From NCBI GenBank assembly GCA_032718475.1, contig JAUCBJ010005901.1:1-60593 (forward strand): DNA of 60,593 nucleotides, written 5' to 3'. The notes under the pieces were generated by a model. It was not told the origin of the DNA and made no database searches. It was given only the letters and a program-made list of their open reading frames with translations. Positions within the stretch are counted from its first letter, which is position 1; each line of letters starts with the position of its first letter. Below, one piece after another: positions 20,751-60,593 of the stretch. The position numbers were made by a program, and so were the translations under genes. This DNA comes from Nemertoderma westbladi (taxonomy: Eukaryota > Animalia > Xenacoelomorpha).

Positions 20751-20896
20751 GAAGGATTGCATTTTTATTATGGAGATGATTATGGAAGAAGTGCAGTTAT
20801 TAGCGAATCTGTTCCAAATCTGGCTACTGCCCCAAACTCATATAATAATAACATAGAAGCCATCTTCATTGTTACTGGAATATGGAAATTCTACAG
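20751..20896 (+). CDS. Beta/gamma-crystallin-domain gene, internal exon A (Greek key 1)
   Basis: ttttacag|EGLHFYYGDDYGRSAVISESVPNLATAPNSYNNNIEAIFIVTGIWKFY(R)|gt; starts in phase 0, ends in phase 2. Confidence 0.8.
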
Positions 20897-27220: not shown

Positions 27221-28825
27221 CTACTTTACAACGTTAGATATAGCTAAACAAGTGTTACGGATATTGTAAAGAATAATGTTATTGGACGCATATACTCTAT
27301 CAAATAAACTAATGACTGAAAATCGTCTAATGTGAATAAAGTTGTTAATTCCTAGACTGACGAGCATGTTACTTGCACTGCAGTCGAATTTAAACCCAAA
27401 CAGCCGGCGAACTGTATTATTATATGCTACCTTGAGACGATCTAAGGTGGAATTAGAAAAGTAAACGTCTGCCCAAAGAGAGTTGCAATATATGGTACTA
27501 CAGTAACAGGAAAATAGTTTAGATTTCACATTTTTGCTGCACTTATTGAAATTCCTAATTAGAAGGTTACATCTCGCGTAAAAGCACCTGGTTTGATTAC
27601 GAATATCAATGTCGTCAGAAAAGTCATTTGTAATATAGTGTCCTAAATATTTGTATTTCGATACCTGTTCTAGAATTGCACCATTAATAAACATGGCTAT
27701 ATCAGAGACATAATGACGAGAGCAACTTTGTAAAAATAAACATTTAGATTTCTTAGCATTAAACTTTAGATCATTTTTATTGGCATAGTTCGCACAAATA
27801 TTAAGTAATTTGTCGCTAATACGTTCTAGAACGATTATCTCGAAAAGTTTGCCTATAATTGTACATAGGGCAATGGGGCGGTAATTATTATCATCAGTTA
27901 CTAAACCGGTCTTATCTTTTAAAACTGGAAATATATGAGATTCAATGATTGATGAAGGTAAAAAACCGTGTATAAAAAAGGCTGTGAATAAAAAACTAAG
28001 AAATATATGCAAACGAGGTGGGGCTAAAAATATATGTTCAGCAAATATATTATCAGGACCACAAGACTTATTGCTAGATAATGAAGTAATTGCCGTAACA
28101 GTCTCTTTAGGAGAGACCAGCATGTCAGTACTAAATGGAATATGAGAAATATAGCTATGTACATTCTCCGAAATTTGATTTATCCCTGAGCTGGAGTTGA
28201 ACAGTGATTTATATTTATCGGCCCACTGATTGCAGATTGATGGGGCCCCTTTGGCTGTACCGACTGACATTGGTGGAGAACCTCGGAAGCTAGTTTTATT
28301 CTTAACCTGTTGCCAAAATTTATATGAATCATTGTTAGAAAGTGACTGCGCTAGTCGATCCGACTGTATTTGCCCCTCAGCCCGTTTACAGTGACGCATA
28401 GCCCTCTTAAACTGGGCTTTGGCCCGTAGTAGTTGAGCATGTAGAGCCCCCCCTCGTTGGCCACCCATTTCGCGCCATAACAAGAAGAGTTCCCGTGAGT
28501 GTTCATACTTTTCTCTCGCTACTTCATTCCAGCCAGGTACATGCGAGTAGTTGTCAGAACCCCGTTTGACCCCAAGCGTCAATGACTCTGCTTTTTTTAA
28601 AGCAGAAACAATTTCCTCATTAAAAGCAAATATCTCCTTCCTGTGAGATTTACATTTAGTGTTCTCACACTTGATGGCAGACCATGGAACAGATATATTC
28701 GATAGTAATTCCTCGCATTTATTGGAGTAGAGATTACATTGATCCTGAGACAGAGATGACCAATTGGTCCTATTGTGGCACTCCGGAGTTTTTGATACAC
28801 CAGGTGGAATCTCAGTTGGTTCCAC
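27221..28825 (-). mobile_element. 5'-truncated CR1/L2-group LINE ORF2 with an in-frame deletion of the RT catalytic core
   Basis: PGWNE, GPDNI..EH, NYRPIAL...LERISD is followed directly by KLLNIC..LKFNAKKS and YKYLGH; there is no QG or YADD motif. (TAA)n tail at ~27095-27112. Confidence 0.85.
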
Positions 28826-29855
28826 AGGAATATTAATATATTATATATTATATATATTATATATTATATAACCCATAAATTTTTCAAAAACAATAAATTT
28901 GTGTTGAAATTTTCACAGAAGATAGCCTACATATCTAAGTTCTTTGGGCCAAACTCATGGACCGAGAAATACAACCCATTTGGTACTACAGATCCTTCTA
29001 CATGATATATTTTTCATAAAAACCCTCAAAATATTTACAAATTTTGAAAAAAACCGACTTGCACAAAAAGTCCCATATTTTTTGAACAAAATGGCTAACG
29101 AAGGTATCCGTACTCAGTTTTCTTAGTTAAAGATCACAGATAATTGTGTTCTAGTTTCAGAACCTATAAAATATAAAAAAATAGATTTGGGATGATACCC
29201 CCCTTAAGTATTCATTTTATGTAAATTAAAATATAGAAGTTATTAGAGAAAGGGGGGGGGGGGGGGCTGAATGCATATCTGATCTCAGATAAATATAATT
29301 TCGGGCATAATAAAATAACTTATTCTAAGCAGGGTCGATAGTTAATGGAAGGAAAGGTCAGGGTTGAATGAACTCCAATGAAATAATTATTGCTGATGCT
29401 GACAAATATAAATAGTGTTGTGCAGGGTTGCCAGGGGGTTGAGTGCCGGATTTACTAGACACCCCGACCCGTTGTTGTTTAGGACTACCGACTATTTTTA
29501 GTTTTAAAATTTCCCACCGTTTTTATTTTACATAATGTCGCCCAGTCCTTGCTAAGTAACATAATAAATACTCTTCTGGTGGAAAATGTTTGGTGCTTTG
29601 AAATTATGGATATTAGAATTATAGCGCTTCCCATCACAAAATTTACACCTTAGTATTTTGATAATATCTGTCAATTTTTGTTGAAATATAATACGGTTTG
29701 CAGATTCTGTTCCCGCTTTTAGAAGACTTCGATAATTTTCACTGTACAAATTTTATTATCACAGAAATCTTGCTAAAGTTTGCCAAACGAGATAATATCA
29801 GAAACAAATCAGCCAGCGCGGCGTATGATCCACCTTTAAATGGGATCCTGAAATA

Positions 29856-32659: not shown

Positions 32660-34528
32660 TTAAAATTTAATAAACTTAGACACGCACTTGCCACATATCA
32701 CGAAGCAATGCTCATTACAAATGTAATCATCACAATTACAACATGAAAGAAATGTTTTCAAATCTTTAGATCTATCGCATTCCACACATCGACGTCGCTT
32801 TCTCTTACGTGATTCAGCTATTGAAATCAGATTATTCGAGGTTGCTATATTACTTCCTTCATTATCATCATCCAGTCTACGTGCATTGCGAATAACTAAC
32901 AATGCTGCTTCAGTACGAGGCATAGTAGTTCGTGTCAGTAGTGTTGGACCAATTAGTTCACGACCCAATCGTTCCAAGAACAAACGCCGTTGGTTACGTT
33001 TATGATTGAAGTAGTCTGGAAATAGGTCCATCCAGATGCAGAAGGCATTATATCCAGAGATGCCAATTATATGACTAAATACAACGACGGGCCATCTTCG
33101 AGTTTTTCGTTTCACTGAGTATTCTTCCAAACACTTATCTACTGCATCTACACCTCCCTTAGTTTTATTATAATCCATGATCATTAGAGGTTTCTTCTTA
33201 TCACCAACACTGGATAATTCATTCCCACTATGCATCGTACTCAGTAATGCAACAATTTTACCTTTCTTGGGGCAATATGAAACTATAGTGGTATCATTAG
33301 TATGTCCAAATAAACTGCTAAATGGTTCTCGAGATTGAGTAGCAACAAACTCCAATGGGAGTTCTGGTTTGTTTCTTCGAAGTGTTCCTAATAAGGTTTG
33401 CTTTCGTTTCAACATCTCCTGACCCAAACTGTACGAGGTGTAAAAGTTGTCAGTTGTCACATTTCGTCCTGGCAACCCAACAGTTAGCTCCAAAGCAACT
33501 CTCTGACCTTGATTCCGCTCAGGGCTGTCACCTTCCTGCTTTCCAAGATACGGTTGAACATTGTAAATGTAATTATTGTTTTCAGCTGTAACAGATGTAC
33601 ATGTCCAAAACTTCAGCCCATATTTTGCAGGTTTCTGCGGCATATATTGACGGAAGGAGCAACGCCCTCTAAATTTGACTAATGTTTCATCAACGCAGAG
33701 ATACTCTTTTGGAACATATGCTAATGCTAACTGATTTGTAAATTTATCCCATAAATCACGAATCGCGGCAAATTTATCGACTTCACGGCGACGTTTAGCT
33801 TTTTCATCAAAACGCAGCATTCCAGATATTTCTGAAAACCTATTTTTAGACATTGTTGCAGCGAAAATAGGGCGACCGGATTCACTATTCCAGAGCTGAA
33901 CAATAGCTTCATTAGCAGAACGATAAACTCCTGATAAAACTAACAGTCCCACATAGGCTTGGAGTTCTTCAGTTGTCAGTTCTTTCCACTTTTTAGCAGA
34001 TTTAGCAATAGCATGTAAATTCGTCATTTCAATAACTAGATTCATCATTCTATCAGTAAAAAATAGCGAAAATGCCGAGGAAATAAAACTACATGATGTC
34101 ACAGCAAGCCGTGTTGGACCTGTTCTACCATGGATAATGTTTTGTGGTCGAACCTTCCCTGCTATTGTTGGTGGATTCTTTCCCCAATTAATGGTTTTAT
34201 TAGTGTCCTTATGACGAGAATGGAATTCAGAATCGCCGCCATATTCACCGTCACAATCCACATCACTGCCATCCAATTCATCGTTGGAATCGCTATCAGG
34301 GCCTTTATCATCTGCCTCTTTTATTGGTACTCCGGCTTCAGATTCATCACTACTCGATTGATCATCGTCGTCATCATCAACAGTGCAATCGTTTTCATCG
34401 TCATTATTCTGTTCTAAAATCGGTGCAATATTCAGATGTTGATAGGGCAATTGCTGGCGTGGTAAACGATTTCTTCGGGGATATTCTTTTCTCAACGGCT
34501 GTTCGACATCACCTTGCACGTCATCCAT
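32660..34528 (-). CDS. piggyBac transposase, intact 622-aa ORF
   Basis: Acidic N-terminus, VDETL...KPAKYGLK, TDNFYTS, YNKTKGGVD, and a C-terminal Cys-rich domain (C..C...CCNCDDYICNEHC...C..C). Confidence 0.95.
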   Translation of the reverse strand: MDDVQGDVEQPLRKEYPRRNRLPRQQLPYQHLNIAPILEQNNDDENDCTVDDDDDDQSSSDESEAGVPIKEADDKGPDSDSNDELDGSDVDCDGEYGGDSEFHSRHKDTNKTINWGKNPPTIAGKVRPQNIIHGRTGPTRLAVTSCSFISSAFSLFFTDRMMNLVIEMTNLHAIAKSAKKWKELTTEELQAYVGLLVLSGVYRSANEAIVQLWNSESGRPIFAATMSKNRFSEISGMLRFDEKAKRRREVDKFAAIRDLWDKFTNQLALAYVPKEYLCVDETLVKFRGRCSFRQYMPQKPAKYGLKFWTCTSVTAENNNYIYNVQPYLGKQEGDSPERNQGQRVALELTVGLPGRNVTTDNFYTSYSLGQEMLKRKQTLLGTLRRNKPELPLEFVATQSREPFSSLFGHTNDTTIVSYCPKKGKIVALLSTMHSGNELSSVGDKKKPLMIMDYNKTKGGVDAVDKCLEEYSVKRKTRRWPVVVFSHIIGISGYNAFCIWMDLFPDYFNHKRNQRRLFLERLGRELIGPTLLTRTTMPRTEAALLVIRNARRLDDDNEGSNIATSNNLISIAESRKRKRRRCVECDRSKDLKTFLSCCNCDDYICNEHCFVICGKCVSKFIKF

Positions 34529-34704
34529 GTTAATGATTATTATAAGATGTAAAAGGGAGATTCTGTCTATTGTACAGTACCGTGTACCGGTACCGGTACA
34601 GTACCGTGTACCGGTAACTGCAATATCAGAATTGTCACACTTTGTTCAACAAATTTAATAATATATTTATTGAATATCCCTCCAAAAACAAAATAAAATG
34701 CCTT

Positions 34705-37400: not shown

Positions 37401-38960
37401 TTATACACCAATTTCATATAACATATCTTTTATAAATTTTACTAATAATATAGGCTTATTTTCACTCATAAAAATCTGTATTTTACCTAGTTCTAATTCC
37501 GCGTATTTTAATCGTACAGATTCTGTAAGAGGACAATAACAAACTACGTGTTCTTCCGTCTGAATATCTAATTTACAAGAGCATAAACGCTCATTTCGGG
37601 GGATCCTACTCCATCTCCCTAACTCAACTCGTAAATTGTGGGAGCTCAATCTCAATCTAGAAAAATTGACCCTTAAATTATCCGGGATGTAAATTCTAGA
37701 ATTACCAGAATAAATATCGTGCACAGCTAATCCTGGATTCAAATTCAAATATGTAGAAAATTTACTTTGAGATTGCGATTTCCTACATCTTTCCCTCTTA
37801 AATTTCGTTACACTATCTAAAATATAATTACAATCTGATGCACTAATCTTATTTAGAAATCTATAACCGGGAGAATTGACGGATTTACATAATTCATATG
37901 CAAAATAGGCAGCATCCTCATTTGTCCATAACTTTTGTAAATTACAAAAGGATTTCTTAATATTATTACTAATTATTGCACCAACTTCAGGCATCCCTAT
38001 TTCTACTAAGCACAAAATATTAGGAGTTTTAATACGTACATTCAATAAAAATTTTTGCCAAACAAATAACCATTCATTTTCAGAATTACACAGGTTACTA
38101 CAGACCACAAACCCTGGCACATTATAAGAAACCTCGGTTTTAACCTCATATAACCAAATAAAATTGAATCCTAAAACTCTGTCATTCTGTAGCTTATCAG
38201 AAAGGCCTGCAATGTTCCATGGTAATATCCGAAGTTTATTATTAAATATTTTGTTCCGTTCCACCTCTTTATTCCCGCAAGAATCCTAATGAAAACCTCG
38301 ATCGATTTCTAAACCATCAACCGTTACTACACCCTTTCTATAGTTTGTAGAATACAGCAGCACTTCCTTGATTTTCAGCCGTCTCTTTTTACAACTTTGT
38401 TTAATCGAGCATGTTCGCGACGTACGGATGGGTGGGTATCAGGTTTGATATAAATTTTATCACAGGTGGCCTTCTCTTTTAACTTCTTTCGGCTGCAACA
38501 CTTCAACATTATCGGAAGCGGTCGTCACAAGTCGTCTCCCGAACTTTGTTCTCTTTGATCCTTCCCCAATCGAATAAATTCGAAATCAGAAGGGCCTAAG
38601 GAAGCATCAACTTGACTTAATATTTTTGTCAGCTTCTGCTCGTCATTCTCCCCCAGATCATCTGGAATCTCTTTTACTCCTAGGACTACCACATTGCATC
38701 CCCGCCGTTCCGAATCAATCGACTCTAAGAATTTCTGTTGCCTTCTAATCACTACATGACAACTATCTAACTCTTTCCGCATTGTCTTTATCTCAGTTGC
38801 CTGTTCAGAAAATAAATTTATTTTCAAAGTATTTCTTTAGTTCACGGATTTCTTGAATCACCGGAGTCCGACGTCGATGTACCGACTGATTGGTCCAAAG
38901 GTTCGTCTAGTAGGTTTTTTAGGATTGTTGTCATGTCATCTTTTTTTTCATTGAACCTAT
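37401..38960 (-). mobile_element. Internally deleted LINE: ORF1 remnants, then the ORF2 APE start fused to the C-terminal Zn-knuckle region
   Basis: ORF1-like ERRGCNVVVLGVKE; ORF2 LRILPWNIAGL...YE joined to RLSSHNLRVELGRW...LCSC...EEHVVCYCP; no RT. Confidence 0.75.
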
Positions 38961-39634: not shown

Positions 39635-42134
39635 TGTTGGATTATTTCACTGTTAAGTAGCAATCTACAGTATCACATAAAAACTTTCTAAATCCGACAT
39701 ATTTTGACTTGATTTGTAGTAATGTAATATGCCTACTTCCTATCAGTAGATATAAGTACACTGGTGATTCTATTGGCACAGTGGTCAGATGGGTTAAGGC
39801 GTTGGTTACATTCTAGGTCGGTCATGGGTTTGAATCTTGGTCGGGAAATTTGCATTGGGCTATTAATTTTCGATTTCATTAAACTAGATAAGCCAATGAG
39901 GTGCGTACAACACATGGAATGGTGGGTTGGGCCAATCATAATAGGGCATTTAAGAACCTATTGCTCCAATGTGCAGCCATGGAATGTTGTAGAATGTTCT
40001 AGTTAATTCCATGTCCAGTATTTGCTATATAAAGGGCGGTTTACCCTTCGGTTATCACCTAACACAATCACTTGTATTACACTCTTGACTTAATCATTTG
40101 TTTAGATTTATTTGTAAAAATTAAGTTTGATAAGTCTTTAGCAATTACGTTAATATACTGTAAACTCTTCAACATGTACGTTTTAATGTGTCCACCTTTG
40201 GGACAGCCAAACATTTGGGGAATGGCTGCCTAAACCGTTAGGCCCTCAGCAATGCAGGGAAAGGATGTCCGCAACACACTAGAGCGCCCATATTAGATTC
40301 ACCCGCACTCCCGTTCGAAGCATGCCCTCTTGCCATACAGCGTCCACTTCAGAGGAAGGTAAGACTTTATTTGACGCCCTTGCCTGCAATAAGACCTTAG
40401 ATCAGGGTAAAGCGTGACACCGTCCTAGGATGCCGTAAAATTTAAGATTAGATATTTTGGATTCAGACATAGGCAAAAACCCCGGATCAACCTGTATCTC
40501 CTACAGGTGTGAGCTATTGCTGTTTGTTAGTACGCGCAAGTACAATTTAGGTGCGGATAGCACATGCTCTATAATTTGGTGAGTTGCAGTACTGACAGTT
40601 ATGTACAGCTTCACTTTGTAGCCTATATAGTTTGCCTGCCCCTGTCTGAGCCCGAAATATTTGATCAGGCAAGAGGCAGCTTTCTGCTACTGGTACATAT
40701 TTGGATTAGATAGGTTACTAACATCCTACCGCACCTTGCCATGTACTAATAGGTATTTACTGCTAACCACTGCAGTAACAAAATTCTAGAATCAAATTTG
40801 TATACCAGATCAGCTAACCTAAGGTAGTAATTAACACCTATTCTCTTATCTCATAATCAGAATCTGGTATTAGTGCCGATCACGGGTGTAGTTAATAACA
40901 CCATAATTGCCCGGTTGAGTTGTGGATAAGGAGGAGAGAGCTTTGACATCAGTTTGTAAGTATTGATCCTACAGCGTGCAACTAGTTATTCGAGTAGCTA
41001 GCGCCTGGTATTGTTTTGACTAAAATCACTAAAACCTATTATAATGGCGATACACCAAAATTGTCTTATTCGCAACACACACACATGCGTCCTAAAACAC
41101 ACACACGCGTCCTAAACCACATTTTGAGACCTACTAGCTACTGATTTACATTAGGTTACTTTTCAGTAGGATTTATTCTATAGTTTCTACTATTTTGTAG
41201 TTTTGTAATTTGTGGAGATATTTAGTATTTAGTTTTACGGCAAGAGGTACTTTAGGCATACACCCTTTTTTGACTGTTTTCCTATGGGCAGTATTGTTAC
41301 GCTAGTCTGTTGATCCACTAGCTCGTTCATAAACTATATAAATCACACTGCGGCAAGTTTACATTATTTAGGTCCATTAGCGATAGTTAGGATACGCTGC
41401 GCGGGGATTGTTTTCCCGTGAGTTTGGTCTGTCACTGTAGACTGTACATCTGCCTCACCAGTTAGAGGCCGGTTATCCTGTTTTGTCTAGTTCGCCTGGG
41501 CATTTGACTTGCCCACGCTTTAAAATAGACACCAGGCTCCATTCCTCGCCAGTAGTAGTTTGCGTATTTAGTATCTGTTTGTTTAGATACCCTGGACTGG
41601 GATTTATTGTCAGATACTCTATGAGCCCGTATACACTACTAGATCCTACAGTAAGGTACATCGTTACTAGGATCCGGTAGGCGGTATACTACTGGACTTT
41701 TCAGTAGGAGATATTTTATAGTCTAGTATTCGTAGATTGGTAGATTATAGAATGGACCCTACCAGAGAGTACATAAAAGTAGGAGATATTTTACAATCTA
41801 ACATTAGTAAGATTAGTAAATTGTAGAATAATTTCTTATTTGTATGTAGCTAGTAGTTTCGTATTTGATAAAAGTAGGAGATACTCTTATTAAATATTTA
41901 GTAGGAGTAGTATTCGCTATTGTACTTCGTAGCTAGTAGTTTCGTATTTGGCTAGCTGTAGATAGTTAGATAGTTTGTAATTATTTTGTTTTACGCTGTG
42001 TGTGTGTGGTGCTTTTTTCAGTACTTGAAAAGGTACGCAAGGTTTAAAGACCAATTTGTATCGGTACCTAGGAAAATTTTTTCGAAGAATAGTTAGTAAA
42101 ACTCTCACCTTCGATTTTTCAGGACTCAAGGACT
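39635..42134 (+). mobile_element. Long (~2.5 kb) LTR of a BEL/Pao-type family, older copy
   Basis: Colinear with 55311-57940 from TG(T/A)TG.ATTATTTCACT to CAGGACTCAAGGACT; visibly diverged. Confidence 0.75.
39890..40060 (+). promoter_or_regulatory. LTR Pol II promoter (CCAAT boxes, TATA, Inr-like)
   Basis: GCCAATGAG and GGCCAATCAT, TATATAAA at 40026, then CCTTCGGTTATCAC; all conserved in the second LTR (TATAAAA at 55809). Confidence 0.6.
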
Positions 42135-43189: not shown

Positions 43190-45932
43190 ACTTTCCTTGA
43201 CAGACCACCTTTCCTGCCGACTTGGAGCTTCACAGCTTCAGCGACGCTAGTAAGGGTGGGCTGGGGGTTACCTTATACCTCAGACGACAAGTGACTTCGG
43301 ACAGCTACGAAGTGTCTCTCGTTACTTCAAGGGCAAAAACAATGTCATTGAAGTACATGACGGTATCTTGTGGAGAGCTACAAGCATGGACGATATCCAC
43401 CGATATTGTCAGTCTAGTTCAACGCGAGCTGGAGGCTAACTTGAAGGTCACAATTTTGGACTGATGCGATGTTAGTACTTTGGTACATAAATAACGACAC
43501 ATTCCAGTTCAAGACTTTCGTAGCTAACAGACGGGCTGAAATACTGGACCAGTCACTCAAACAAGATTGGCGTCACTGTCCAGGGAAACTGAACCCAGCT
43601 GACATTGCATCACGGGGAATGCTATCCATAGACTTTTATAAACCGGACAATAAGTCCTTTTGGTTTAGAGGAACCAACTTCCTACAGCGACCATCGGACG
43701 AATGGCCACCGTTACTTGACGCGACAACCTACACCATACCGGAGGGTGCCGAGATCAAAACCGACACTGTTGTCAAATCAAAAGCGATTTCACCAGACGT
43801 TTCGCCAGATTGTTCACCAGATGTCTCGCCAGATTATTCGCCAGAAGCGACACCAGATCCGGATCATACACCAGATTGCTTTATGGAGCTCTCGACAGAT
43901 TGTCTACCGGACGTCTCACCAGACTTTCCACCAGACATCTCGACAGACAGTCCACCAGACTTTAGACCAGACACTCTGACAGAAGCTACGCCAGACTCTC
44001 TTTGGGACAGATGACAGAACATTTCGCTGGAAGTCAGCGATATGTTTCACCAGACGTCTCACCAGACTGTTCGCCGGATGCCTCACCAGACTCTCTACCA
44101 GACTTTCCACTAGACGAACCACCGGAAAGTAGCGACGTGTGCTATGAAGCTGAAATGACACCATTGGAGCGGACTAGTACACACCTATTAGGTATTACCA
44201 ACTCACCTACTTTGACTTCCTTGAACAATGACGGTGTGGCAACAGCGATCACACTCCGCTCAAGGAAAATACTAGGTTAGGAGGCTTACAAGCCGACAGG
44301 AACACACTGGTACCGTAGAGTTGAAACCATTACTACCAGTCAATTCACTGAGTGCGGACGGTAAAGGTAAGACCGTGGAGATTGAAGTACTTAAGATCTC
44401 AGACAAACCTATTGTACAAAGGGAGACACTCACCGGAAGGCCCGCAGGACTACCAAGTCCGAACAAGTATCCACAATTTGACTATACCTTACCTGATGAC
44501 GTCACCAACACTTATGTTGACAGGATAGTTAACTTAACTAGATCATGGATGGAAGCGTGCCACAAGTTAGCATGGCTCAAACGTTTGAGACAATATGCCA
44601 GAGGCAAACGTGACTTTCCAAGAAGACTTACCTTGGCTGAAATTGGTAGTTGTGAAGTTGATATTATTAAACATTATCAATTGCGATATTTCGCACGAGA
44701 GTTCACAGCGATCAATCAGGGTAAACAGATTAAGTCTTCACCGATCTTGAGTTGGAGTCCAATAATTTACAACAAGGGCTTACTTTGTCACAAGTCCAGA
44801 ATCCAAAACATTGACTTCGCCTTAGACTGTATGATACTGGACGCACACGTACAACTCAAACACGTAGATAGACACCACTGTCTATCACACTTACGCTTGA
44901 GGTTTGTACTGATTAGACCTAGTAAGGCATTGAGTTCAGTGACACGTAACTGTATTATTTGTAAGAAGGTGCACGCGAGGATAGGACACCAAGAGATGAG
45001 TGAACTACCACTAGCAAGGTTACAGGCCCTTAGACCCCCTTTCACTGAGACAGGGATAGACTGTTTTGGACCCATAATTGCGAAACGTGGAAGGTTACAG
45101 GTAAAACTCTGGGGATTAATCTTCACCTGCATGGCCAGCAGAGCTGTCCGTATTGAACGTGTGACAAATTTAACCACCAACGCCTTTATCCTAGCCTTAC
45201 GGCGATTTATCGCTAGATGTGGATTGGTCAAATCCATTTATTGCGACCAAGGGACTAACTTTGTGGGTGCACGGAATGAAATCTCCAGAGCCTTAAGGAG
45301 GTTGGACCAAAATAAAATTTCCCATGAACTATGTCCTCACAACATTGTCTGGAGCTTTAACACTTCTGACAGTCCATGGAGAGGCGGAGTTTGGGAAAGA
45401 TTAATTGGGTCAATCAAAACGGCTATGGCGAAAGTAATACCGACGCAACGCATCTTGACAGACAACCAACTGACGACGTTGTTAATAGAAATCGAAGCGG
45501 TTTTGAACACAAGACCTATCGCTTTGATCCCAGACAACAACGACTCACAGTTTGTCTTGACACCAGTGCACCTGCTTATGCAGGCGCCGATGACGTTGTT
45601 GTCCACTTCGGTACCTGTCGATAGCGATGGTTACGGCAACAGAGCTTGGAAAATCGCTCAATTATTAGCCAACAAATTCTGGGAAATATGGCAGAAGTAC
45701 TATTTGCCCTCTATTTCGGCCAGGACATCTTGGTATCTTAATACCCGATGTCGGAGACGCAGTGACCACGTTTTATTGGCTGAAACCAATTTGAAAAGGC
45801 GGTTTTGGCTGACTTGAGTCCTTTTGACCACACACCCGACATCCGGTGTTGTAAGGACAGTAACTGTACGGACTATTGACGGTCGTACCGTAGATAGGCC
45901 TGTACAAGCCTTGAGGAGACTAGAAACGTGAT
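43190..45932 (+). pseudogene. pol: BEL/Pao pol 3' part (RNase H, integrase, C-terminal DUF5641-like region), with stops and frameshifts
   Basis: ELHSFSDAS, FKTFVANR, WRHCPGKLNPADIASRG, C..C, TGIDCFGP, CDQGTNFVG, GGVWERLI, LNTRP, GVVRTVTVRT...RPVQAL. Confidence 0.92.
43790..44125 (+). repeat. 12-bp coding repeat (xSPD/xPPD tetrapeptides) between RNase H and integrase
   Basis: SPDVSPDCSPDVSPDYSPEATPD...; CCAGA(C/T) recurs about every 12 bp. Confidence 0.85.
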
Positions 45933-46678
45933 GGGAGACTACAAATCTCCACCTAACATTAGTAAATAGAGATGTGGGACCCTTTATGGTTGCCACATAG
46001 CCTTACTGTATTCTAGTACTTGTATTACTGTACATTTGTATTGCTCTTCACTGTAGATTTAAGACAGCGGTGGAATTCCATTGTCTTTATATGTGAACAT
46101 GGAGGGTAGTACCCTTATGTATCACATAGGAGCGGGGTTGTGTGTACAGTAGGAATGGAATTCCACTTGGAACCCACAAGTGAGACAATTTTTCAAAAAT
46201 TTTAGATAAATCCATTCAGTTGGATTTAAATTTAAGAAAAACGATTCTCCAGTGGACGGATTCTAGGATATGGTTGGATAGAACCAAAATTTGGGAGGGA
46301 CAAGAGCGGATGGAAGGCTTGCGAGCCTACCGATATATTTTTTTGGAAAATAAAATCGGCCTTGTTCTAAAGTCGTGTCTATTATTATATTTTAGTCTGA
46401 TTAATTCTCGACTGCATTGTTTTCTTAAGGGAGTAGTTTGGGAATAAAAGGTGAGTATTTTAGACTCACGGCTAGTTTACCCGGAATTCGTTTTTATCGG
46501 CACATTTTTTGGATTGGGAGCCAGTGCGAATTCATGCGGAACCCGAAATCTTAAGCAAATGGGTAGGGGTTTTAGAGAGCCAAAAGCCGACAAAACTCTA
46601 AGTCTCCTCACATCTAACCTCTGTTTGTGCTTCCTCTAGTAGAACGTAACGATACGTAACCATATATACGCGTATATA

Positions 46679-49189
46679 ATGTCTGAGAGGATGTATAAGG
46701 AGTTACGACAGGGATTCACACAGGAGCAGGAGCACCAAGCGCCATTTAATCAATGTGGAGAAAAGAACTTTAACGTGGTTGGAGTTGAGAGTATGGCTAG
46801 GAGTACAGCCAAGCTCGCGAAGTCCAAGGCGGATCCAAACGTTATGCGACAGCGACTAGACGCCTATAACAAAAGAGCGGAGGAGTTACGCGTGGAGTTC
46901 AATGCGTTGTACCCCTACGATGCATTATGTGATGCCAGCGACATTTGCGAGGACCCCGACACGGAGATACGCCGATTATATCACATGCTGCAATATTTGA
47001 CGGCGAGTGAACCCTTGCCTGCAGCTAGGGACAAATTTGATGGGATGCATATATATATTATAGGGGATTATAGACGCGCTTGAGGAGTGGATCCGGAAAC
47101 TAAGGAAGCGTTCTCCATTTATAAACTGTTCTATAAATGTGGAGGATGTATGCGTGCGCAAGACAACGCGATCCCTATGCGCTTGAACCCGGAAAACCCC
47201 GAGCCGATATTAGCGCGTTGCCCAAACCACCAAATTCTGCGTTACCAAGAAGGCAGATACCCTTTGACGAATCCGTACCACTTGTTAAAGATTAGTGGAC
47301 CAAACGCGGGCGAGATTGTTATTTATGAACCCAAATTAGTCGAGCCAGACGTCTATAGTATGGTAGTAGACGAGTCTTACAAGTAGACACAGGAGAAACG
47401 GGAAACTCTAAGCCTCAACAGGGCATACAAGGCATACGAGAAAGGCGAGATCGTGGAGTTCGGCGGAAGGCTCGCGAGCCTACCATTCTATTGGATATCC
47501 TACGATCAAACCAAACCCAAGGAGATGACACCCGATCTTTTCGATAGTATAACCTTTGCTCAGCATTTGTCGAAGAGACTGCAGATACCACACATCAAGA
47601 TGACGAGAGAATCTCAACCCCACCCTACCAAGGTGGTAGTACCGGTCGCGAGGACAACCAGCTTTCCTATTAGCATACCGACCCGAGAGGAGATAACTTA
47701 CAAGATCCCCATAGTAGAACACCCGGAGATCATTTCAAACCTGGATTTCCTCCCATTGGTAACATTTGGCGATGTGTTAGAGGCGGCGGAGTTACATAGA
47801 ACCATAGTTCAGAAAATCTTATGCAATGTGCCTCCACATATTACCGACTTTAAGGAAGTGGATCGCGCGGGGACGGATATCGCACCTTGCATTCTGTGGG
47901 GGTATTTGGCGAAGACGATTTGATTATGGATCGGAGTCGGCACATTCGATACCGACACCGACATTGCGACCAATTGGACGGGGAAACCTATTAGCTTCGA
48001 CAACGAAAAGTCTATAGGGAGGATTTGGAACCCTACTGATGACTTACTCGATGATTGGGATGCGACGAGTCGATCTCTGCGGGAGAATGGATACATGTTT
48101 TATGATAATGAAGGAGGAAGCCATCAGCAGAGCCTCACTTCAAAGACCATACAAATTCGAGCACCAGATGGAGTGCTACACGTCTTCAGCCGACAGGGGA
48201 GCGATCAAAAGATGTCGACTCCGGAAGGAATGACGCAAAGACAAGCTATGATAAAATGGATAATTAAATCCATGGAACTAGCTTGTAGCATAGAGGCTAG
48301 GATGTTACCAAAGGCTGTGCGCGACGTTGTACTCAACAGGAGTATCGTCAAAATCGGATCCGGTGTATGGGAGGACCTTATTAGCAACTTCGCAGGAATG
48401 CCTGAGGAGGAGGATCGATTGCCTACGCCCTACATAGATACTAGACCATTGTTGCTTTGGGCCATCGAGCAAGGATATTTTTGAGAATATAACATGCATA
48501 AAACTGGAACGGGTAATATCTCATATCTCATGTTTAGTTGGGATTTTAAGGAGAGCAAGAGGAGCAAATACACAGACATATACAGTGAGGGAGATACCCC
48601 TAGCGTAAACAAGTTTGAGTCACAGCTAAAGTGGCGAGGATGTGTATATTGGGCGATCACCTCACCTCTGCGAATAATCTTGCAATACTACTTGGTGATT
48701 GAATCATCGGTGAATGTGTGTTTCATCGCCGATGTAGTGTCTAGGACTCTAAATCGACATCCGTTATGTCTCGTCGAAGGACATACAGTTTACGAGGGAG
48801 GAAGGACGCATACTGACATATTCCGCCGATTTCTCCAACCATTTTACTACACCGATGCCCACTGTGAAGTTTTCATGCAAGCGGGATTCAGTGTTTTTAT
48901 GGACGTTTATCTCACTCACGCGGGAAGCCTAGTCGACAGACCGTCGATGTTGACGTTAGTACCCTACGACGGGGAACGCCACGCGGAGATCAAAGGCCCG
49001 GAAGGATCCTGGAAGGCACGCGCCCCTACCGCTCATCATCCCGATGAGGATCCAACCGAGACCGCGACAATCGACGAACTGTTGCGGCAACTCATAAAGA
49101 TAGAGGAGAATCTTCCGAGGAAGATGCGAACCGAGATACGCGAGGTAGAGAAGAGCGACGCTGTGGTTTGTGTGCAACCTACGGAGTAG
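46679..49189 (+). pseudogene. BEL element extra ORF (~836 aa, one frame, 4 nonsense codons) with a WRN/EXD/RNase D-like DEDDy 3'-5' exonuclease domain
   Basis: Five track ORFs share one frame and the gaps between them are open. Motifs: FYDNEG (ExoI), TIQIRAPDGVLHVF, LPKAVRDVVLNRSIVKIGSGVWED (ExoII), YIDTR, and a tentative ExoIII at PL..ILQYYLVIE. Confidence 0.75.
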
Positions 49190-49859
49190 TAGTAGTAAAT
49201 TTATTGACTTTCGTCCATAATTATTATATAATATTTATCGCACAACTGAATGAAAAGATTTATCTAAATTTTTATCAAACATACATTACTTATTACATAT
49301 GTACTGTACGTGTGTAGTTTATTGTAATTTGTTAGGATCTATACCGCACCATTAGAGATGTGAAACAAAAATAAATAAATAAATGTCAAAAGCTACTAGT
49401 CCAATAACAAAATAAAATATAGACAAAAGACACTTCATAATTGGGTGTATAAATTATTTATTCATGTTCCATTACCGGAATCAAACAATGTCCCCCGAAT
49501 TATTGTATGTTAACAATATTCAAAGAATGATAATATATAATATGGGCGGGCGGGAGGGGGGGGGGGGAGTTACTGAAAACACTCCCATGATACGTCCATA
49601 ACTATAACTAATAACATACACTCAATAAGTTAATAAATACTACCATTAACCGTGTCTATCATACATATATAAATGTCAAAAACGCTAACAGACTCTTCAA
49701 TTAACAAATTAATATAAACAATGATAATATACAGTATAATATGGTCGGGTTATAAAATATAATATAAAAAAACTACGTTCATGACAATAACTAATTGCAT
49801 CTATTCGATAAATTAATAAATACTATACCACATCATAAAGATGTAAATGTCAAAATTGT

Positions 49860-50930: not shown

Positions 50931-51441
50931 TGTTCCTTCGCTCATATAATACAACTGCTAATGATAGCACAGTATGAGATAACAATAATAGTGAATAATA
51001 AATCAGTATGTAACAGCACCGCGATGACGGTAAGACTATAATGCCGGTCTGTACTGAAACTGACAGATTGGATAACTGAATAGTAAATCAGTATGTATGA
51101 GATAATATACGACACACCAATATTACTCCACTGCTACATTACTTTGGCCTCCTACCTAGTGGATGCTCTCCCTCGCTCTCCAGCGATTGGCTAATAACCT
51201 ACTTCACGCCTTTCCACTCTCTGGGAGTGTTTCCCCCCTGTCGCTAGCCCCTGCTAGCTGTTTCCCCTTCTGAGGTGGTTTGACCTCTAACCTCCCTTTA
51301 TGTGGCTTTGGGTTTGTACTGTCCCCGATGTTGGTTGTGATACGAGATTAATTATTGCTAATCTCGTATCTCCAACATATTGCTGAAAATGTCACTATCC
51401 CATTTTATGAGGGTAATGAAGCGGTATTGAATCCGCTTACA
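50931..51441 (-). mobile_element. Probable 3' LTR of the minus-strand BEL-like element
   Basis: On the minus strand a PPT GGGGGGAG directly precedes TGTAAGCGG at 51441. The candidate end ...GGAACA at 50931 is inferred, since the partner LTR is outside the window. Confidence 0.5.
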
Positions 51442-52118
51442 CTCCCCCCATGCTATCTTCCCAGTGAGAAGATAGCATCATCTACAAGTGTGCTTCAATT
51501 CCGCTGGAACCCGATCTACTATCAGGTGTGGGGTGGAGTTCTTTTCTTGGAGTCGGCTTTCCAGGACGCTCCCTCTGGGTATGATATTACTACCCCTACT
51601 TGGTGCAACCGCAATCTATGTTGCACCAAGACATCTGATGTCTCGGTTCGAGACAATTGTGGACTCCTCTCACACAATTTTTATATCTCCTCACTCTGGA
51701 CTAACTCTAACTTCACTTCAGCTCCACTCTAACTCCACTCTACTCTATCTTACTCTCGGACCTCTCCGTCCCTCACTCTGCCTCTTAATACTCGCTCCCC
51801 ACATCTGAATTGCACCCGTATACTTTCCACACGCGTCAACACCTCCTCTCGCTATCTTCCCTGCGCTTCTGTACTCAACCCTTACTTGTTTCGCTCCACT
51901 CACTCCTGACGAGCCTCACCCTCCCCTTCTGTGCCGTCGCACTCAAGAAGTGTGATTCATCTAGTGTCCCGTCCTCCTGTCATAGTCTATTGGTCCCCAG
52001 TCCCAGTAGCTAGTTGGAAAAGGTTACATGACTATAGTACTTACTTTGATTATATTGATTCTAATTATATTCTATTGATTATTACATTATTACATCCCCA
52101 CATCTCCCCCTCCAAGTC

Positions 52119-54569: not shown

Positions 54570-55085
54570 CACTCTCTTACTACTAACCCTACTAACTCTC
54601 TAACTCTACTAACTCTCTAACTCTTACTAACTCTCTAACTCTTACTAACTCTCTAACCCTTACTAACTCTCTAACACTTACTAGCTCTCTAACTCTTACT
54701 AACTCTCTAACTCTTACTAACTCTCCAACTCTTACTAACTCTACTAATGGTACTACGTACCCTCTTACTGTCTAACTCTAACTCTACTAACGGTACTACG
54801 TACTACGTACCCTATTACTCTCTAACTCAAACTCTACTAACGGTACTATGTACCCTCTTACTCTCTACTAACTCCACTAACGGTACTATGTACCCTCTTA
54901 GTCTCTAACTCTTACTAATGGTACTACATACCCTCTTACTCTCTACTAACTCCACTAACAGTACTGCGTACCCTCTTACACTCTAACTCTTACTAATGGT
55001 ACTGCGTACCCTTTTACACTCTAACTCTTACTAACGGTACTGCGTACCCTCTTACATTCTAACTCTAACTCTACTAACTTCTATC
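54570..55085. repeat. Compound minisatellite (CTCTAACTCTTACTAA-type short units grading into ~36-bp GGTACTACGTACCC units)
   Basis: Direct inspection. Confidence 0.9.
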
Positions 55086-55310: not shown

Positions 55311-57940
55311 TGATGAATTATTTCACTATAAGGTAGCATTTGTAGTTTAACTTTAACGTAAAAACTTTTGAAAATCCGACGTATTTTGATTAAGTTACAG
55401 TAATGTAATATGCCTATTCATATTTGTACACATAAAACCCTTAGGTACTCTCGTGGCGTAGTGGTCAGATGGTTAAGGCGTTGGTTACATTACGTAGGTT
55501 ACGAGTTCGAATCCCAGTCGGGAAATTTGTATTTTGGGGCCATTTATTTTTGTGTGGTGCTAATTGGTAGGCCAATGAGAAGCGTACAGCGTAGCGAATG
55601 ATGAGCCAGGCCAATCATAGGGCATAAATTATTTTATTGCTCAAATGTGAGGCAGTGGAAAATTCTGTTAGGATTCCATGTCCCAGATTAGTGTAAGGGC
55701 CGGACTGCGTTGAACGATGAGCTGGGCCAATCATAGAGCACGAAGCACTTCATTGCTCAATGGTGAAGCTGTGGAAAATTCTGTTTAGTTTCCATGTGCA
55801 ATTTCTAGTATAAAAGGCCGGTTTGCCTTCGGTTATCACTTCTTAGAATGTTGTTATCATCCTGATATCGTTTATTCTTGTAAAATTAGTTAATTCGGTT
55901 TCTTGTTGAAACTTTATTTGATAAATCCTTTTGTAAAACTGTAAATATACTGCAATTTCCTGACATGTTTTCTTTTGGTCCGACTTCGGGACAGCCGAAC
56001 ACCAGGGAGATGGCAGCCTAGATCGTTAGGCCGTAAGCAACGCAGGGAAGGGATGTCCACAACACGCTAGCGCCCACATTGGATCGACCGCGCACCCCCT
56101 TTGCCCCTTCGAAATACTCCACTTGCTATGCAGCGCCCGCTTTGTGAGAAGGTAAGACTTTGTTCGACGCCCTTGCCCGCCGTAAGACCTATAGATCAGG
56201 GTAAGCGTGACATCGTACTGGACGCCGCAAATTTAGGATCAAATAATTATATCCAGACACCCCCCCTTTGTCAAGTCCCACGAATCCCTGGGTTAACCTG
56301 TACTTCCTACAGGTGCGAACTATTGCCATTCGTCAGTACGCGAGTACATATTAGGTACGGACAGCATACGTTCCATAATTTAGTGATTCATAGCACTGAC
56401 TGTTTGGTACCGGTTCGCTTTGTAGAACGTACATTAGTACCCCCCCCCCCCCCTGTCTGGAGTTAGCTATTTGATCAGGCAAGGAGCATTTCTGCTACCG
56501 GCACACTGCTTGGCCTAGGGAGGTTTATTAATATCCTACCGCGCCTTGCCACGTACTGATAGGTATTGCTGCTAACTACCGCAGCAACAAAGTTCTAGAA
56601 TTAAATTAGTATACCAGATCAGCTAACGTACGGTAGCGATTAACCCCTATTCTTATCTTACAACCAGAATCTGGTATTAGTGCCGATCACGGGTGTAGTT
56701 ACTAACACTGTGGTTGCCCATTGGGTTGTGGATAGGAAGGAGAGAGCTTTGACGTCATTCGTGAGTATAAAGTTCTACAAACGCGACTAGTTTATTTTAG
56801 TAGCTAGCGCACGGTATCACTTAGTCAGAAAATCACTAAAACCTAGTAAAAGGAATTACACGAAATTGTTTTATTTGTAACACACCCACACACACACGCC
56901 CTAAAACATATTGCCCTTAAAGTTCTACTAGCTATAGCGTACTATACATTACGTTAGGTGGAAATTATCTGTATTTGTAAAATTAGGATCTGATTTAGTT
57001 GCGGCAAGATAAGGAGTATTTCACTTTCATTATTAAACTGTTGTTTGTCTGGACAACGGTATTGTTACATTTAGGCCTGACCTTTTAGACTGACTTCGTA
57101 CAGGGGGATCAGTTATTGTTACATTTAGGCACGACCTTTAGGCTGATTTCGACAGGGATGATCAGCATTGTTACACTAGGTCTGTTAACCACCTAGTTCG
57201 TATATAAACCATATAAATCACACCGCGGCAAGTTACTGTATTTAGGACTGTCAGTGATAGTTAGGATTCGCTGCGCGGGGATTGTTTTCCCGTGAGTTTG
57301 GTCTGTTACTGTAACTGTACATCTGCCTCACCGGTTAGAGGACAGGTATCCTTCTGTCTAGTACGTAGGCATTAGACCCGCTCACGTACATAGAATAGAT
57401 ACAAGGCTCTGTTCCTCGCCAGTAGTCGTTTGTGTACTGTATCTGTTTGTTTAGATATCCTGGACTGGGATTTGTTGTCAGATACTGTACGAGCCCGTAT
57501 ACATTACTAGAGTCTCATAGTAAGATACATCGTTACTAGGATCTGGTAAGCGGTATACTACTGGACCCTTACAGTAGGAAGTATTTATTAAATATCTCGA
57601 CCGAAAGTGCGTGCGCATTTAAAGTGAGATATAGATAAATATTTGTTAGCTATTGTAAGTAGGAGATATTTAAAATTTAAGGTTAGTAAATTTAGTAATT
57701 TAGAACGTCCCCTGCTTCAGTAGGCTTTTAGGGTAGCTAGTACTTTCGTATTTAATATTTGACTAGCTAACAGTTAGTTTGTAGCACTTTGTTTTACGCC
57801 GTGTGTGTGCGGTGTTACTTTTCGGTACTTGAAAAGGTACATAGGGTTTAAAGACCAATTTGTATCGGTACCTAGGAAGATTTTTCGTAAGCGTAGAAGT
57901 AAAACTCTCACCTTCGACCTTTTCAGGACTCAAGGACTCA
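55311..57940 (+). mobile_element. 5' LTR (~2.6 kb, TG...CA) of a younger BEL/Pao-type element that continues beyond the window
   Basis: Homologous to 39635-42134; ends ...GGACTCA and is followed by TTTC-TGGACCGCTTCGAGGATT (PBS-like), a leader and a long ORF. Confidence 0.78.
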
Positions 57941-58511
57941 TTTCTGGACCGCTTCGAGGATTAGACCGCTTTTCGCAAAGTTTGGGAGACAATAAATTCG
58001 TCCGCGCCGCCGAAAAACGGAAAGACCCACGTCCGGTTTGTATTTGGGAATTTGTACGACTGGAAGATCAAAGGAACGTAAGTTTTACGACTCGCGTCGT
58101 TCAAACTTAAGAAAGCACAGTAGTACTCAAAATTTGTGGGTTTCACTGTCTATTAGTAGTGTTGTTGGTACTTATTTTCCCGTTAGACGTTGCTGTTTGG
58201 CCTATTGTTTATACTTGTTGATCTACATTTTGTTAACGTATACCGTTATCTCACTTATTCGTACAAATTTAGCCGGTAGGCTAGATTACTACTTATTTTA
58301 TTATATACCTTGTTAGTTTTATTTGTACCGGTTAGGGTATATATATGATATATATATATATCAAGGTAAGTTTGACATTTGTACATTTCGACATTTTGAC
58401 ATTTCGACATTCTGACTTGTTGATTTATTTGTACCGGTTAGGTAAGTTTGACACTTCAACATTCAGACACTTTGACATTTTATTACCCGTACTTGACGTA
58501 TATAATAAGAC

Positions 58512-60593
58512 ATGAGTGACACACCCCATTCGACGAGATACCCACCTACCGACTATGACTCGTGCGACCCGGACAGATCGACAGTAGACGAACCGAGAAG
58601 GAGAACCCGAGATTCCACCGATGTCACACCGCTTGCGTCGCCGGTACCCCGAACGGAAATACCGGAAGCCGCAACGCGTGGCGACGGCAGGATCGAAGAT
58701 TTCCTTACCGTCCCGCAGACTAGATCACGGGAACCGGACATGGTAAGTTCGACTGGAAGCCAGGAGAACGTTATTAGAAGTATAGGAGGACACATGGCCC
58801 AGATTACTCGGAACCTCGGAGAAGGTTTTCGCGTTTTACGCGAGTTAACCGCCCCGATGTCGAGATACGAGTTCTACACCTTACAGGTAAGGATAGAAAG
58901 TAGGGTACATGCCTCCGTAGATAAACTTAAAGGTTTGCACGAACTTGCAGAGTTGCGTGGCGACAACTTTACTCAGGTAAAGATAGTAGATAAATTGGTA
59001 AGTGCGAGAGAAAGCCTTATCCAGTTTAAGTCGGTGATAAGATTGGCTCAACAGGAGCAGTTCGACCAACTGCTAGGTGAGTCAGTTTCGGACGCGTTGT
59101 TACAACCCGAAGAGGAAGAAGAACTCTACTGCCTGGACGGAAGGTTGGAAACGCTGACCAATTTTCTTCGTAGATGCGGCGTACCGATCGACGAACCGGA
59201 AGTCGAACCGCGAGGGACGACGGAAGTTCTCACTACGGAAGGCTCGCGAGCCTACCAACATCCACCACTGGATAGATCGTTCGTTAGCGTACGGAGCGAC
59301 GTTGGCAACGTTGGCGACGTTAGTAGAACAGCGTCTGGAATTACTCGACAACAACAGGAGGTTGCACGCCGACAACAAGTCGCCGAGGAAGAAGCGCGAC
59401 ACCAGATGGCACAGATCGCCATCGAAGGAGAGAAACAACGTAGAGAAGACGAGGCAAGAATTGCACAACTCAAGGCGCAAGCTGAATTCGAAGCATCAGA
59501 AATGCGCAGACTGGAGGAGGACTTAGCGCGAGAAGCGGCAGCCGACGAGTTAGCACGGCAGAAAGCAGCATCCGACGTTCGTGCCAAGTTGGAGGCGCGG
59601 CAAATAAACGCTCGATTAGCTATACAGGAAGCGGAATTAGCGGCACAACAACAGGACGCAGATCGACGCGAAAGGGAGATGCAACTACAGTTCGAATTGA
59701 ATCGTAGATCGCGCGAGACAGCGAACGCGCAAGCGGACCTCGAACTCGACGCGAGAGATAGATCTATGAGATCGCGAACTGGACACGACTTGTCTGCCCT
59801 GGATCGTATGGAAGCTCGATATCGCGGAATACAGAAGCGGATCGAGGAAGGAAGCGTGGGAGCGATAGATCGAGGAGAGGAGTTCGTCGAGGATTACTGT
59901 AAACGTTTTCCCCAAGTTATTCCTATGCTCAAACCCACGACTCCGATAAAACCGGTCTTCGTTACGAAACCTAAGGAAATAACGCCTGTGCGTTCGACGC
60001 AAGGCAACAGGTTTGTTGTGACGGAAATACCGCAACCTAGGGCGACTTCATCGCCAATTTTAGCAGGTAACATAACTAGTCCACCTACAGTAAGTCGTAG
60101 TCTACTTGTAGGAAGAGAGGAACCTGCGTTTATGACCATTAAACAGGTGAGTAAACCATTACAAGTTAAACCTGTGACGTGCTGTGCAAATCCAGTTATT
60201 TACAGACCGACTACGAAACCCGACTATTTCACTCGACCGTTGACACAATGTTCGACGCAACCTACGACTTCGTGGAAGGCTTGCGAGCCTACCGAACTAC
60301 GAAGGAGGATGGAGGTGGGTAGTACCCACGGGATCGGACAACGTATAGCGAGACCTACGACTTCGTGGAAGGCTTGCGAGCCTACCGAACAACGGAGAGC
60401 CGTAGATTCCGGACCGCAACGGACGAAAACGAGAGTAATACGCCGGACACGAACCCGCCAACCACCTTATCCGGACGACAGCGATTCATCTAGTGACTCG
60501 GAGTCGACGGAACGGGAAATATTCCGTACTGGAGCGGCGGAAGATTGCAAACGAGAGGAACGATCGACGAACCCCTATATCGACAATCCTCCA
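58512..60593 (+). CDS. Open ORF of >=694 codons running off the window; probable Gag(-Pol) N-terminus of the BEL element
   Basis: ATG at 58512 (MSDTPHSTRY...) with no stop to the window end by manual translation; long E/R/Q/A coiled coil; absent from the track because it has no stop. Confidence 0.8.
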   Translation, partial: MSDTPHSTRYPPTDYDSCDPDRSTVDEPRRRTRDSTDVTPLASPVPRTEIPEAATRGDGRIEDFLTVPQTRSREPDMVSSTGSQENVIRSIGGHMAQITRNLGEGFRVLRELTAPMSRYEFYTLQVRIESRVHASVDKLKGLHELAELRGDNFTQVKIVDKLVSARESLIQFKSVIRLAQQEQFDQLLGESVSDALLQPEEEEELYCLDGRLETLTNFLRRCGVPIDEPEVEPRGTTEVLTTEGSRAYQHPPLDRSFVSVRSDVGNVGDVSRTASGITRQQQEVARRQQVAEEEARHQMAQIAIEGEKQRREDEARIAQLKAQAEFEASEMRRLEEDLAREAAADELARQKAASDVRAKLEARQINARLAIQEAELAAQQQDADRREREMQLQFELNRRSRETANAQADLELDARDRSMRSRTGHDLSALDRMEARYRGIQKRIEEGSVGAIDRGEEFVEDYCKRFPQVIPMLKPTTPIKPVFVTKPKEITPVRSTQGNRFVVTEIPQPRATSSPILAGNITSPPTVSRSLLVGREEPAFMTIKQVSKPLQVKPVTCCANPVIYRPTTKPDYFTRPLTQCSTQPTTSWKACEPTELRRRMEVGSTHGIGQRIARPTTSWKACEPTEQRRAVDSGPQRTKTRVIRRTRTRQPPYPDDSDSSSDSESTEREIFRTGAAEDCKREERSTNPYIDNPP

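Follow-up and report, generated by a model that had tools for sequence, protein, structure and literature searches.

A selected accessory gene with a probable exonuclease-like domain behind the pol remnant of a BEL/Pao-derived retrotransposon in Nemertoderma westbladi

The third gene of BEL/Pao retrotransposons is described only as env-like in the profile of the International Committee on Taxonomy of Viruses (ICTV; PMC8742986), and BEL/Pao third genes are likewise env-like in the available text of PMC3118150, where the word exonuclease occurs 0 times. Exonuclease cargo is known already from published rotifer Ty3/gypsy and Penelope-like elements: according to the available text of PMC5408684, Juno, Vesta and the Terminons carry RNase D-like DEDDy third open reading frames (ORF3s) with the motif DEED and with nuclease activity unshown, and the Terminon case is repeated in that of PMC6431247. 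Here we describe a third gene, ORF2, behind the pol remnant of a BEL/Pao-derived copy (element 1) in contig JAUCBJ010005901.1 of Nemertoderma westbladi; the whole stretch analyzed, 60,593 nt of the forward strand, is called the window throughout. An earlier note on this DNA had proposed that a DEDDy 3'-5' exonuclease stands here in the place of env, and had named rotifer elements and Cer1 as precedents for such cargo in long terminal repeat (LTR) retrotransposons. The rotifer precedent is in print (PMC5408684). The Cer1 precedent found no support: 'Cer1' does not occur in the available text of PMC5408684, and term searches for 'exonuclease' found nothing in the available texts of the Cer1 paper PMC10309623 or of PMC8220671, PMC13524379, PMC8556966 and PMC7264820. 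The note's statement that such cargo is not known as a BEL/Pao feature agrees with the literature searched (Repbase, GyDB and most subscription papers lay outside its scope), where we found no such cargo. In that literature, such cargo belongs to retrotransposon groups other than BEL/Pao.

ORF2 as a repeated and selected part of a BEL/Pao-derived family

ORF2 is supported as a genuine, selected, multi-copy accessory gene of a BEL/Pao-derived lineage, and the fuller description of a selected BEL accessory gene with a DnaQ-type domain is somewhat favored. The gene, the element that carries it and its internal features are as follows.

46679..49189, plus strand: ORF2, accessory gene, 836 codons plus stop, with internal stops at codons 135, 236, 415 and 602; probably cut at the 3' end
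47138..47314, plus strand: CxxC...CxxH stretch (amino acids (aa) 154-212), with a weak likeness to the L2 zinc loop of p63/p73 at aa 163-212
47465..47484, plus strand: 20-nt hairpin motif within ORF2, an exact copy, with a 3-mismatch copy at 49011-49030
48095..48703, plus strand: likely divergent DnaQ/WRN-type 3'-5' exonuclease domain (D476, E478, D566, Y671/E675), from colinearity with ORF3 of a second LTR element
39635..40174, plus strand: 5' LTR of element 1, 540 bp with TGTTG...CAACA ends; termini read directly, 74% identical (387/525 aligned bases) to the LTR at 55311
40175..42134, plus strand: degenerate primer-binding site (PBS)-like stretch (40187-40206), then a long leader that is non-coding and contains a donor-like GT at 40359; 72-84% like 55966-57938
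43201..45931, plus strand: remnant of a broken BEL/Pao pol that comprises an RNase H region and an integrase, from Pfam and BEL polyprotein mapping
45932..46678, plus strand: repeated spacer that contains the 20-nt hairpin motif at 46312 and, ending at 46639, an acceptor-like site (branch-point, pyrimidines, AG); from depth as high as that of pol, the motif and an acceptor scan

The reading frame itself is far outside chance expectation. As the earlier note had read it, ORF2 is a single frame with four internal stops and no frameshift across 46679-49189, and it follows the BEL pol stop (45929-45931) at a distance of 747 nt, close to the note's estimate of about 750 bp; the motifs quoted there are likewise present in the translation, including the CxxC...CxxH (D476-x-E478, K558-I-G...D566, C154-x-x-C157 and C181-x-x-H184). 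Each of the other five frames holds 29-50 stops against the 4 in this one, and across 2000 base shuffles, with stops counted over six frames, the fewest stops in a best frame were 18 (mean 31.5). ORF2 contains no introns. Its best Kyte-Doolittle 19-residue window reaches 1.61, at aa 666, and the N-terminus is not among the top five windows. Since no window exceeds this value, and a simple hydropathy scan found neither a signal peptide nor a transmembrane anchor of the env type, ORF2 is not env-like.

Evidence that ORF2 is repeated and maintained comes from contigs of four public DNA runs (X1-X4; at most three samples) placed on the window, whose summed depth indicates repeated as opposed to unique sequence and is not a copy number. 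In X1 the depth is 7,600-33,500 in the integrase bins, 18,800-21,500 in the spacer and 10,300-14,800 in ORF2, and falls to 79-118 in the unique DNA behind; X2, X3 and X4 give the same contrast between element and unique DNA. Within 48050-49450 there are 0 indels at a 10% share in 3/3 runs, as against 232 substitution places, and the 12 indels listed, out of 186, all lie outside ORF2. In some low-depth contigs ORF2 is interrupted by deletions or gaps, which dead copies would be expected to show. Among the best-supported 40 of the 232 differences, a list that for this reason yields no ratio of non-synonymous to synonymous substitution (dN/dS), 22 fall at third codon positions (p 0.004). This bias is carried by the differences that vary between contigs (15/19 at third positions, p 6e-5); those common to nearly all other contigs fall there in 7/21 cases, as expected for neutral decay of the window copy. 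In one X1 contig, read by eye, 4 of the 12 bases of codons 477-480 differ, every one at a third position and silent. The ORF2 stops at 47921 and 48482 are not common to at least 90% of the depth in every run placed.

Several points weigh against this assignment. The third-position counts describe the best-supported 40 differences and are not equivalent to dN/dS, and the comparison of stops covers two of the four, the listed variants holding no rows for those at 47081 and 47384. None of the listed contigs reaches from pol into ORF2, and neither a 3' LTR nor a polypurine tract was found behind ORF2, the sole second LTR copy in the window being the 74% identical one that opens a related copy, element 2. 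That LTR, at 55311, was considered as the 3' LTR of element 1 and rejected: in addition to its 74% identity, it is followed by a PBS-like site and a gag-like ORF and is not preceded by a purine tract.

The identity of the upstream element is clear. The earlier note's assignment of this pol to BEL/Pao is borne out by Pfam matches to Peptidase_A17 (E 4e-12) and DUF5641 (E 3.5e-6), and the remnant is 33-36% identical to metagenome BEL polyproteins. A BEL-type RNase H region is followed by a BEL-type integrase, the order that characterizes Belpaoviridae. Two intact BEL polyproteins (L001 and L005) align only at 43207-43801 and 44543-45925, and no BEL polyprotein match was found between 42134 and 43200; since gag, protease and reverse transcriptase (RT) were not found, element 1 is filed as a defective BEL/Pao-derived copy and not as a complete member. 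The LTR and the leader of about 2 kb are together 72-84% like 55311-57938, and the PBS-like stretch at 40187-40206 takes its identity from its position. No LTR-like ends were found between pol and ORF2. At the other end, depth collapses at 49186, and beyond this point six X2 contigs continue with sequence that differs from the window. The terminal stop of ORF2 may therefore mark a truncation at about its last codon, in which case 836 codons would be a minimum length. Other observations on element 1 are a 12/24-bp tandem repeat between RNase H and integrase (43788-44103) that encodes an S-P-D-rich linker, small insertions in other contigs near 44270, and stretches in both LTRs (39780-39850 and 55450-55520) that look tRNA-like by eye, with A- and B-box-like words, where ARAGORN and Rfam call nothing.

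The exonuclease-like domain of ORF2 and its link to ORF3

The case for an exonuclease fold in ORF2 runs through a second, antisense gene in the window, ORF3, which is repeated like ORF2 as judged by contig depth.

52119..54112, minus strand: ORF3, a broken WRN-type exonuclease-like gene with stops and about three frame changes, belonging to a second LTR element; from atlas, hhalign, profile search and shuffles
51527..52113, minus strand: immediately after ORF3, a polypurine tract at 52103-52113 and then a putative LTR at 51527-52102 whose ends read TGTGGGG...CCCCACA; read from the sequence, with the extent of the LTR taken from the 7-bp inverted ends

ORF3 appears to be the 3' end of a second LTR element whose pol lies outside the window; that it is an antisense gene of element 1 was rejected, because a purine tract and LTR-like ends of its own accompany it in the opposite orientation. 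The highest summed depth lies within 51424-51767, in the region of this putative LTR. Three methods connect ORF3 to the WRN-type exonucleases. In the atlas, a 178-aa piece scores 0.94 to clusters in which 11-36% of the members bear PF01612, and the 10/10 best named matches belong to the same family or clan, a level at which shuffles reach 0.9 in 4-10 of 100. Against an alignment of 13 WRN-type proteins (2/12 further loci and 11/12 homologues, the class confirmed by top PDB matches to WRN), ORF3 gives an hhalign P of 0.0009 and beats 100/100 shuffles in global mode. In hmmsearch it is the top match among 306 six-frame pieces of the window (E 0.044). The ExoI and ExoII acids of ORF3 align to those of the PF01612 family, and no PF01612 match above the cut-off was obtained. 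An earlier reference profile, built from short RNase D proteins (19/20 loci used, one in the wrong frame), gave no match. Separately, the C-terminus of ORF3 has an H-x3-H-x2-C-x2-C stretch.

The alignment of ORF2 with ORF3 covers about 225 residues and keeps G-Y-M-x-x-D-x-E-G, L-P-x-A-V...K-x-G-S...D, L-K-W and Y-x3-E in matching positions. With cheaper gaps the score is 84 against 36 +/- 7 for shuffles, none of 2000 scoring as well; with standard gaps it is 58, equaled in 1/2000. Comparison with the whole of ORF2 gave 0/300 shuffles, and no match to ORF2 came from other pieces of ORF3 (28, 205 and 75 of 300 shuffles score as well). The colinearity of ORF2 with a PF01612-like ORF3 thus suggests that ORF2 holds a DnaQ-type domain, which homology between the two makes likely. 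The D-x-E of ExoI and the D of ExoII are present in ORF2 as D476, E478 and D566, in register with ORF3. At the ExoIII position both proteins have Y-x3-E (Y671-x3-E675 in ORF2) where the class has Y-x3-D. The candidate ligands would be D476, E478, D566 and E675, and the fourth acid would be E rather than D if E675 is correctly placed. That placement is uncertain, because the spacing between the second and third motifs is unusual (105 residues in ORF2 and 97 in ORF3, versus 65 in the WRN-type alignment) and hhalign put the Y-x3-E of ORF3 off the third motif of the family.

Both of these irregularities count against the assignment, and so do all of the direct tests on ORF2. The Pfam check that the earlier note had suggested gave no match to any family, PF01612 included, and NCBIfam and PHROGs gave none; homologue searches returned 0 among 1.84 billion representatives or 7496 candidates, and there was no usable atlas match. 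A metagenome scan, and a viral scan with an alignment, had no match to ORF2, and the exonuclease part found none among PDB sequences. Against the WRN-type alignment ORF2 reaches an hhalign P of 0.067 locally, 77/100 shuffles do as well in global mode, and it is not on the list that hmmsearch returned for the WRN-type profile against the 306 pieces. Two AlphaFold models (predicted local distance difference test scores, pLDDT, of 37 and 32) are too poor to use; fold searches with them gave nothing among the families listed (best Z 4.5, best E 0.5). It should also be noted that the cheaper gap costs in the ORF2-ORF3 alignment were chosen after the standard ones. Of the note's DEDDy match, then, the D-x-E and D motifs stand and acquire a WRN-type link through ORF3, and what does not stand is recognition of ORF2 alone by family, homologue or fold. 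Since it falls below the PF01612 cut-off, ORF2 is described as working like a member of the class and is not filed as one.

In the N-terminal half of ORF2, aa 163-212 resemble the DNA-binding domains of p63 and p73 in phmmer searches of PDB, with E 0.2 for the whole protein and E 0.012 for a 100-aa piece that was chosen after the first match. Of the nine rows matched by this piece, eight are p53-family, and three control pieces of ORF2 gave nothing under E 0.8. The likeness spans about 50 residues around R-C-P-N-H aligned to the L2 zinc loop, including the C-x-x-H ligands C181 and H184. It differs from the p53/p63/p73 domain in that a CxxC precedes the loop in ORF2 and that the rest of the domain is unaligned: the alignment ends at aa 212-214, the L3 cysteines are unmatched, and the Pfam P53 family gives no match. 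The p53-like zinc stretch is a weak and rather doubtful lead that may reflect chance.

Expression, the hairpin motif and possible functions

An acceptor-like site, made up of a branch-point, a pyrimidine tract and an AG, ends at 46639 and lies 40 nt upstream of the first ATG of ORF2; both leaders retain a donor-like site (40359 and 56152). These positions make a spliced mRNA likely in the manner of env, with the particular junction, which would join the donor-like site of the leader (40359) to the acceptor-like site (46639), predicted at about even chances. Four plus-strand sites in the window, this acceptor-like site included, reach 12/15 pyrimidines; it counts against splicing that the site failed a first threshold of 13/15 and passed only the relaxed one.

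A near-palindromic 20-nt motif provides a tie between ORF2 and the BEL lineage that does not depend on the contigs. Exact copies occur at 46312 in the spacer, at 47465 in ORF2, and at 59237, 60274 and 60367 in the gag-like ORF of element 2. Beyond these five and the 3-mismatch copy there are none elsewhere in the 60.6 kb, where 0 are expected by chance, and weaker copies lie in pol at 44283 and 44435. The motif is thus confined to the BEL elements within the window, and being common to BEL gag, spacer and ORF2 it links ORF2 to that lineage. It is read in all three codon phases, which argues that it is kept as nucleic acid, and in 5/5 contexts it forms a stem of 5 bp closed by a 4-nt loop (z -0.1 to -2.6). 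There was no Rfam or tRNA match of note, and the motif is absent from 124 loci, from the viral collection and from the available supplements of PMC3118150. It is a possible packaging, dimerization, export or protein-binding signal.

Taken together, these features suggest a model in which the spliced accessory mRNA would yield a protein that combines a zinc-binding N-terminal half with a distant WRN/EXD-type 3'-5' exonuclease, and in which this product would act in trans. Given the domain, the chances that the exonuclease is active appear evenly balanced, a judgment based on the presence of D, E and D, the Y-x3-E in the third motif and the silent variation around the first. The earlier note had proposed a function in RNA/cDNA processing or in countering small-RNA silencing. 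The most plausible substrates of the exonuclease would be small RNAs or double-stranded RNA that the host directs against the element, which it would trim or degrade. This choice of target is tentative, and we prefer it ahead of an RNA adaptor or the trimming of replication intermediates for two reasons: it is not obvious how a protein produced separately from Gag-Pol would enter the particle, and two exonucleases of the same class, Nibbler and MUT-7, act on small RNAs. Nibbler trimming is described in the available text of PMC13269885.

The alternatives differ in what they make of the catalytic residues and of the hairpin. A DnaQ fold that is weak or dead as a nuclease could, as in EXD1, Maelstrom or Egalitarian, act as an adaptor that binds RNA, recognizing the element's own 20-nt hairpin for export, localization or packaging of unspliced RNA. 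The non-canonical third motif and its spacing agree with such a role, as does a hairpin that folds alike wherever it occurs in gag, spacer and ORF2 and has weaker copies in pol. The available text of PMC5408684 mentions DEDD derivatives that are inactive but still bind RNA, and that of PMC10309623 gives Cer1 an export protein, CERV. We consider this adaptor unlikely, since both ORF2 and ORF3 have the acids of the first and second motifs, the variation at the first being silent, the folding z-scores of the hairpin are modest, and nothing links the protein to the motif. An active exonuclease might instead take part in replication, trimming the tRNA primer, the RNA 3' end or cDNA ends, as proposed in principle for the rotifer ORF3s (available text of PMC5408684) and in keeping with the presence of such a gene at the 3' end of each of two LTR elements in the window. 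Two metagenome BEL relatives (L002 and L004) speak against this: they are BEL elements in head-to-tail tandem, with about 2.2 kb between polyproteins and no ORF of at least 150 aa between integrase and the next gag-pol, and 0/9 metagenome BEL loci match ORF2 or ORF3. A gene of this type is therefore not needed for BEL replication in general, and with a separately made protein that would have no evident route into the particle, a replicative role seems decidedly unlikely.

Other readings question the domain or the gene. ORF2 could be a real BEL accessory gene whose exonuclease likeness is chance or a remnant, in which case its fold would be undescribed; all direct tests on ORF2 are blank or not significant, and the standard-gap match to ORF3 rests on 24 residues. 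Against this stands the colinear match of about 225 residues with three motifs in order, reached by 0/2000 shuffles, to a gene that three methods link to the WRN type, and we regard an undescribed fold as unlikely. That ORF2 is part of some other repeat, or a piece of a host gene next to a BEL fragment, would fit the lack of a listed contig bridging pol and ORF2 in a copy that is deleted and truncated within a nest of elements. This is very improbable, as the spacer is as deep as pol with variants across it, the 20-nt motif of BEL gag and the spacer recurs in ORF2, no LTR-like ends were found between pol and ORF2, and ORF2 has no introns. Returning to the preferred counter-silencing exonuclease, its most elaborate version would have the BEL/Pao lineage encode a spliced, retrovirus-style regulator, with a p53-derived zinc domain and an active WRN-type exonuclease, that acts on its own 20-nt hairpin, the unrelated LTR element carrying a distant relative from a shared pool of anti-silencing nucleases. 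The full combination is improbable.

Neighboring elements and comparison with known systems

The second BEL-like copy lies at the downstream end of the window.

55311..60593, plus strand: element 2, a related copy, with LTR 55311-55965, PBS-like site at 55976, leader and gag-like ORF from 58512; from likeness to element 1 and position

Its LTR and leader run into the gag-like ORF, which makes it the 5' end of a related element and not the 3' LTR of element 1. This ORF (58512-60593) is open for 693 codons to the window end and contains a long charged helical stretch; it has no Pfam match, and its gag identity follows from its position. Between the elements, 18- and 38-bp tandem arrays lie upstream of ORF3 (54590-55070), and a decayed piece on the minus strand at unique depth (49873-50900) resembles 37401-38285 in look and is presumably the 3' end of an ORF from a long interspersed nuclear element (LINE). 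Farther away, labeled by eye, are a Gypsy-like element on the minus strand (12140-17162) with 175-nt terminal repeats that are 99% identical and gag, RT and integrase-like ORFs; an open piggyBac-like transposase of 661 aa (32660-34645, minus strand); and LINE RT pieces at 9968-11038 and 27221-28840, both on the minus strand. An element of about 1.1 kb at 17846-18963 consists of long inverted arms, 93% complementary.

Compared with BEL/Pao as described, element 1 has an LTR that at 540 bp falls within 0.2-1.2 kb, a degenerate PBS-like stretch in the corresponding position, the RNase H-integrase order, the Pfam domains and a third gene behind pol, and differs in that ORF2 is without a clear membrane segment where the described gene is env-like. 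With a 2-kb leader and a 2.5-kb ORF2, the full element would probably exceed the stated range of 4.2-10 kb. With WRN-exo, EXD2 and MUT-7 (PF01612), ORF2 shares the order D-x-E, K-x-G-x5-D, downstream W and, if the third motif is correctly placed, Y-x3-acid; it differs in falling below every threshold, in its long insertions and in the E of the third motif.

The closest parallel is offered by the ORF3s of rotifer Juno/Vesta and Athena/Terminon, as far as the available accounts describe them. In both cases a third gene with an altered catalytic motif, DnaQ-like in the rotifer elements and probably so here, stands behind pol instead of env and is shared by unrelated retroelements within one genome. 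The rotifer hosts are Ty3/gypsy-type and Penelope-like, whereas the host here is BEL/Pao; the rotifer proteins are RNase D-like with DEED, whereas for ORF2 the closest class is the WRN type, with D-E-D and probably E, and ORF2 has about 470 extra N-terminal residues. The ORF2 protein, the predicted splice junction and the cis motif offer a concrete basis on which to test whether animal retrotransposons carry nucleases directed against small-RNA silencing. That a single genome holds two elements, each with such a gene, suggests repeated capture for a common need, and if ORF2 is indeed a selected exonuclease-like gene, enzyme cargo would extend from the rotifer Ty3/gypsy and Penelope-like elements to another retrotransposon superfamily.

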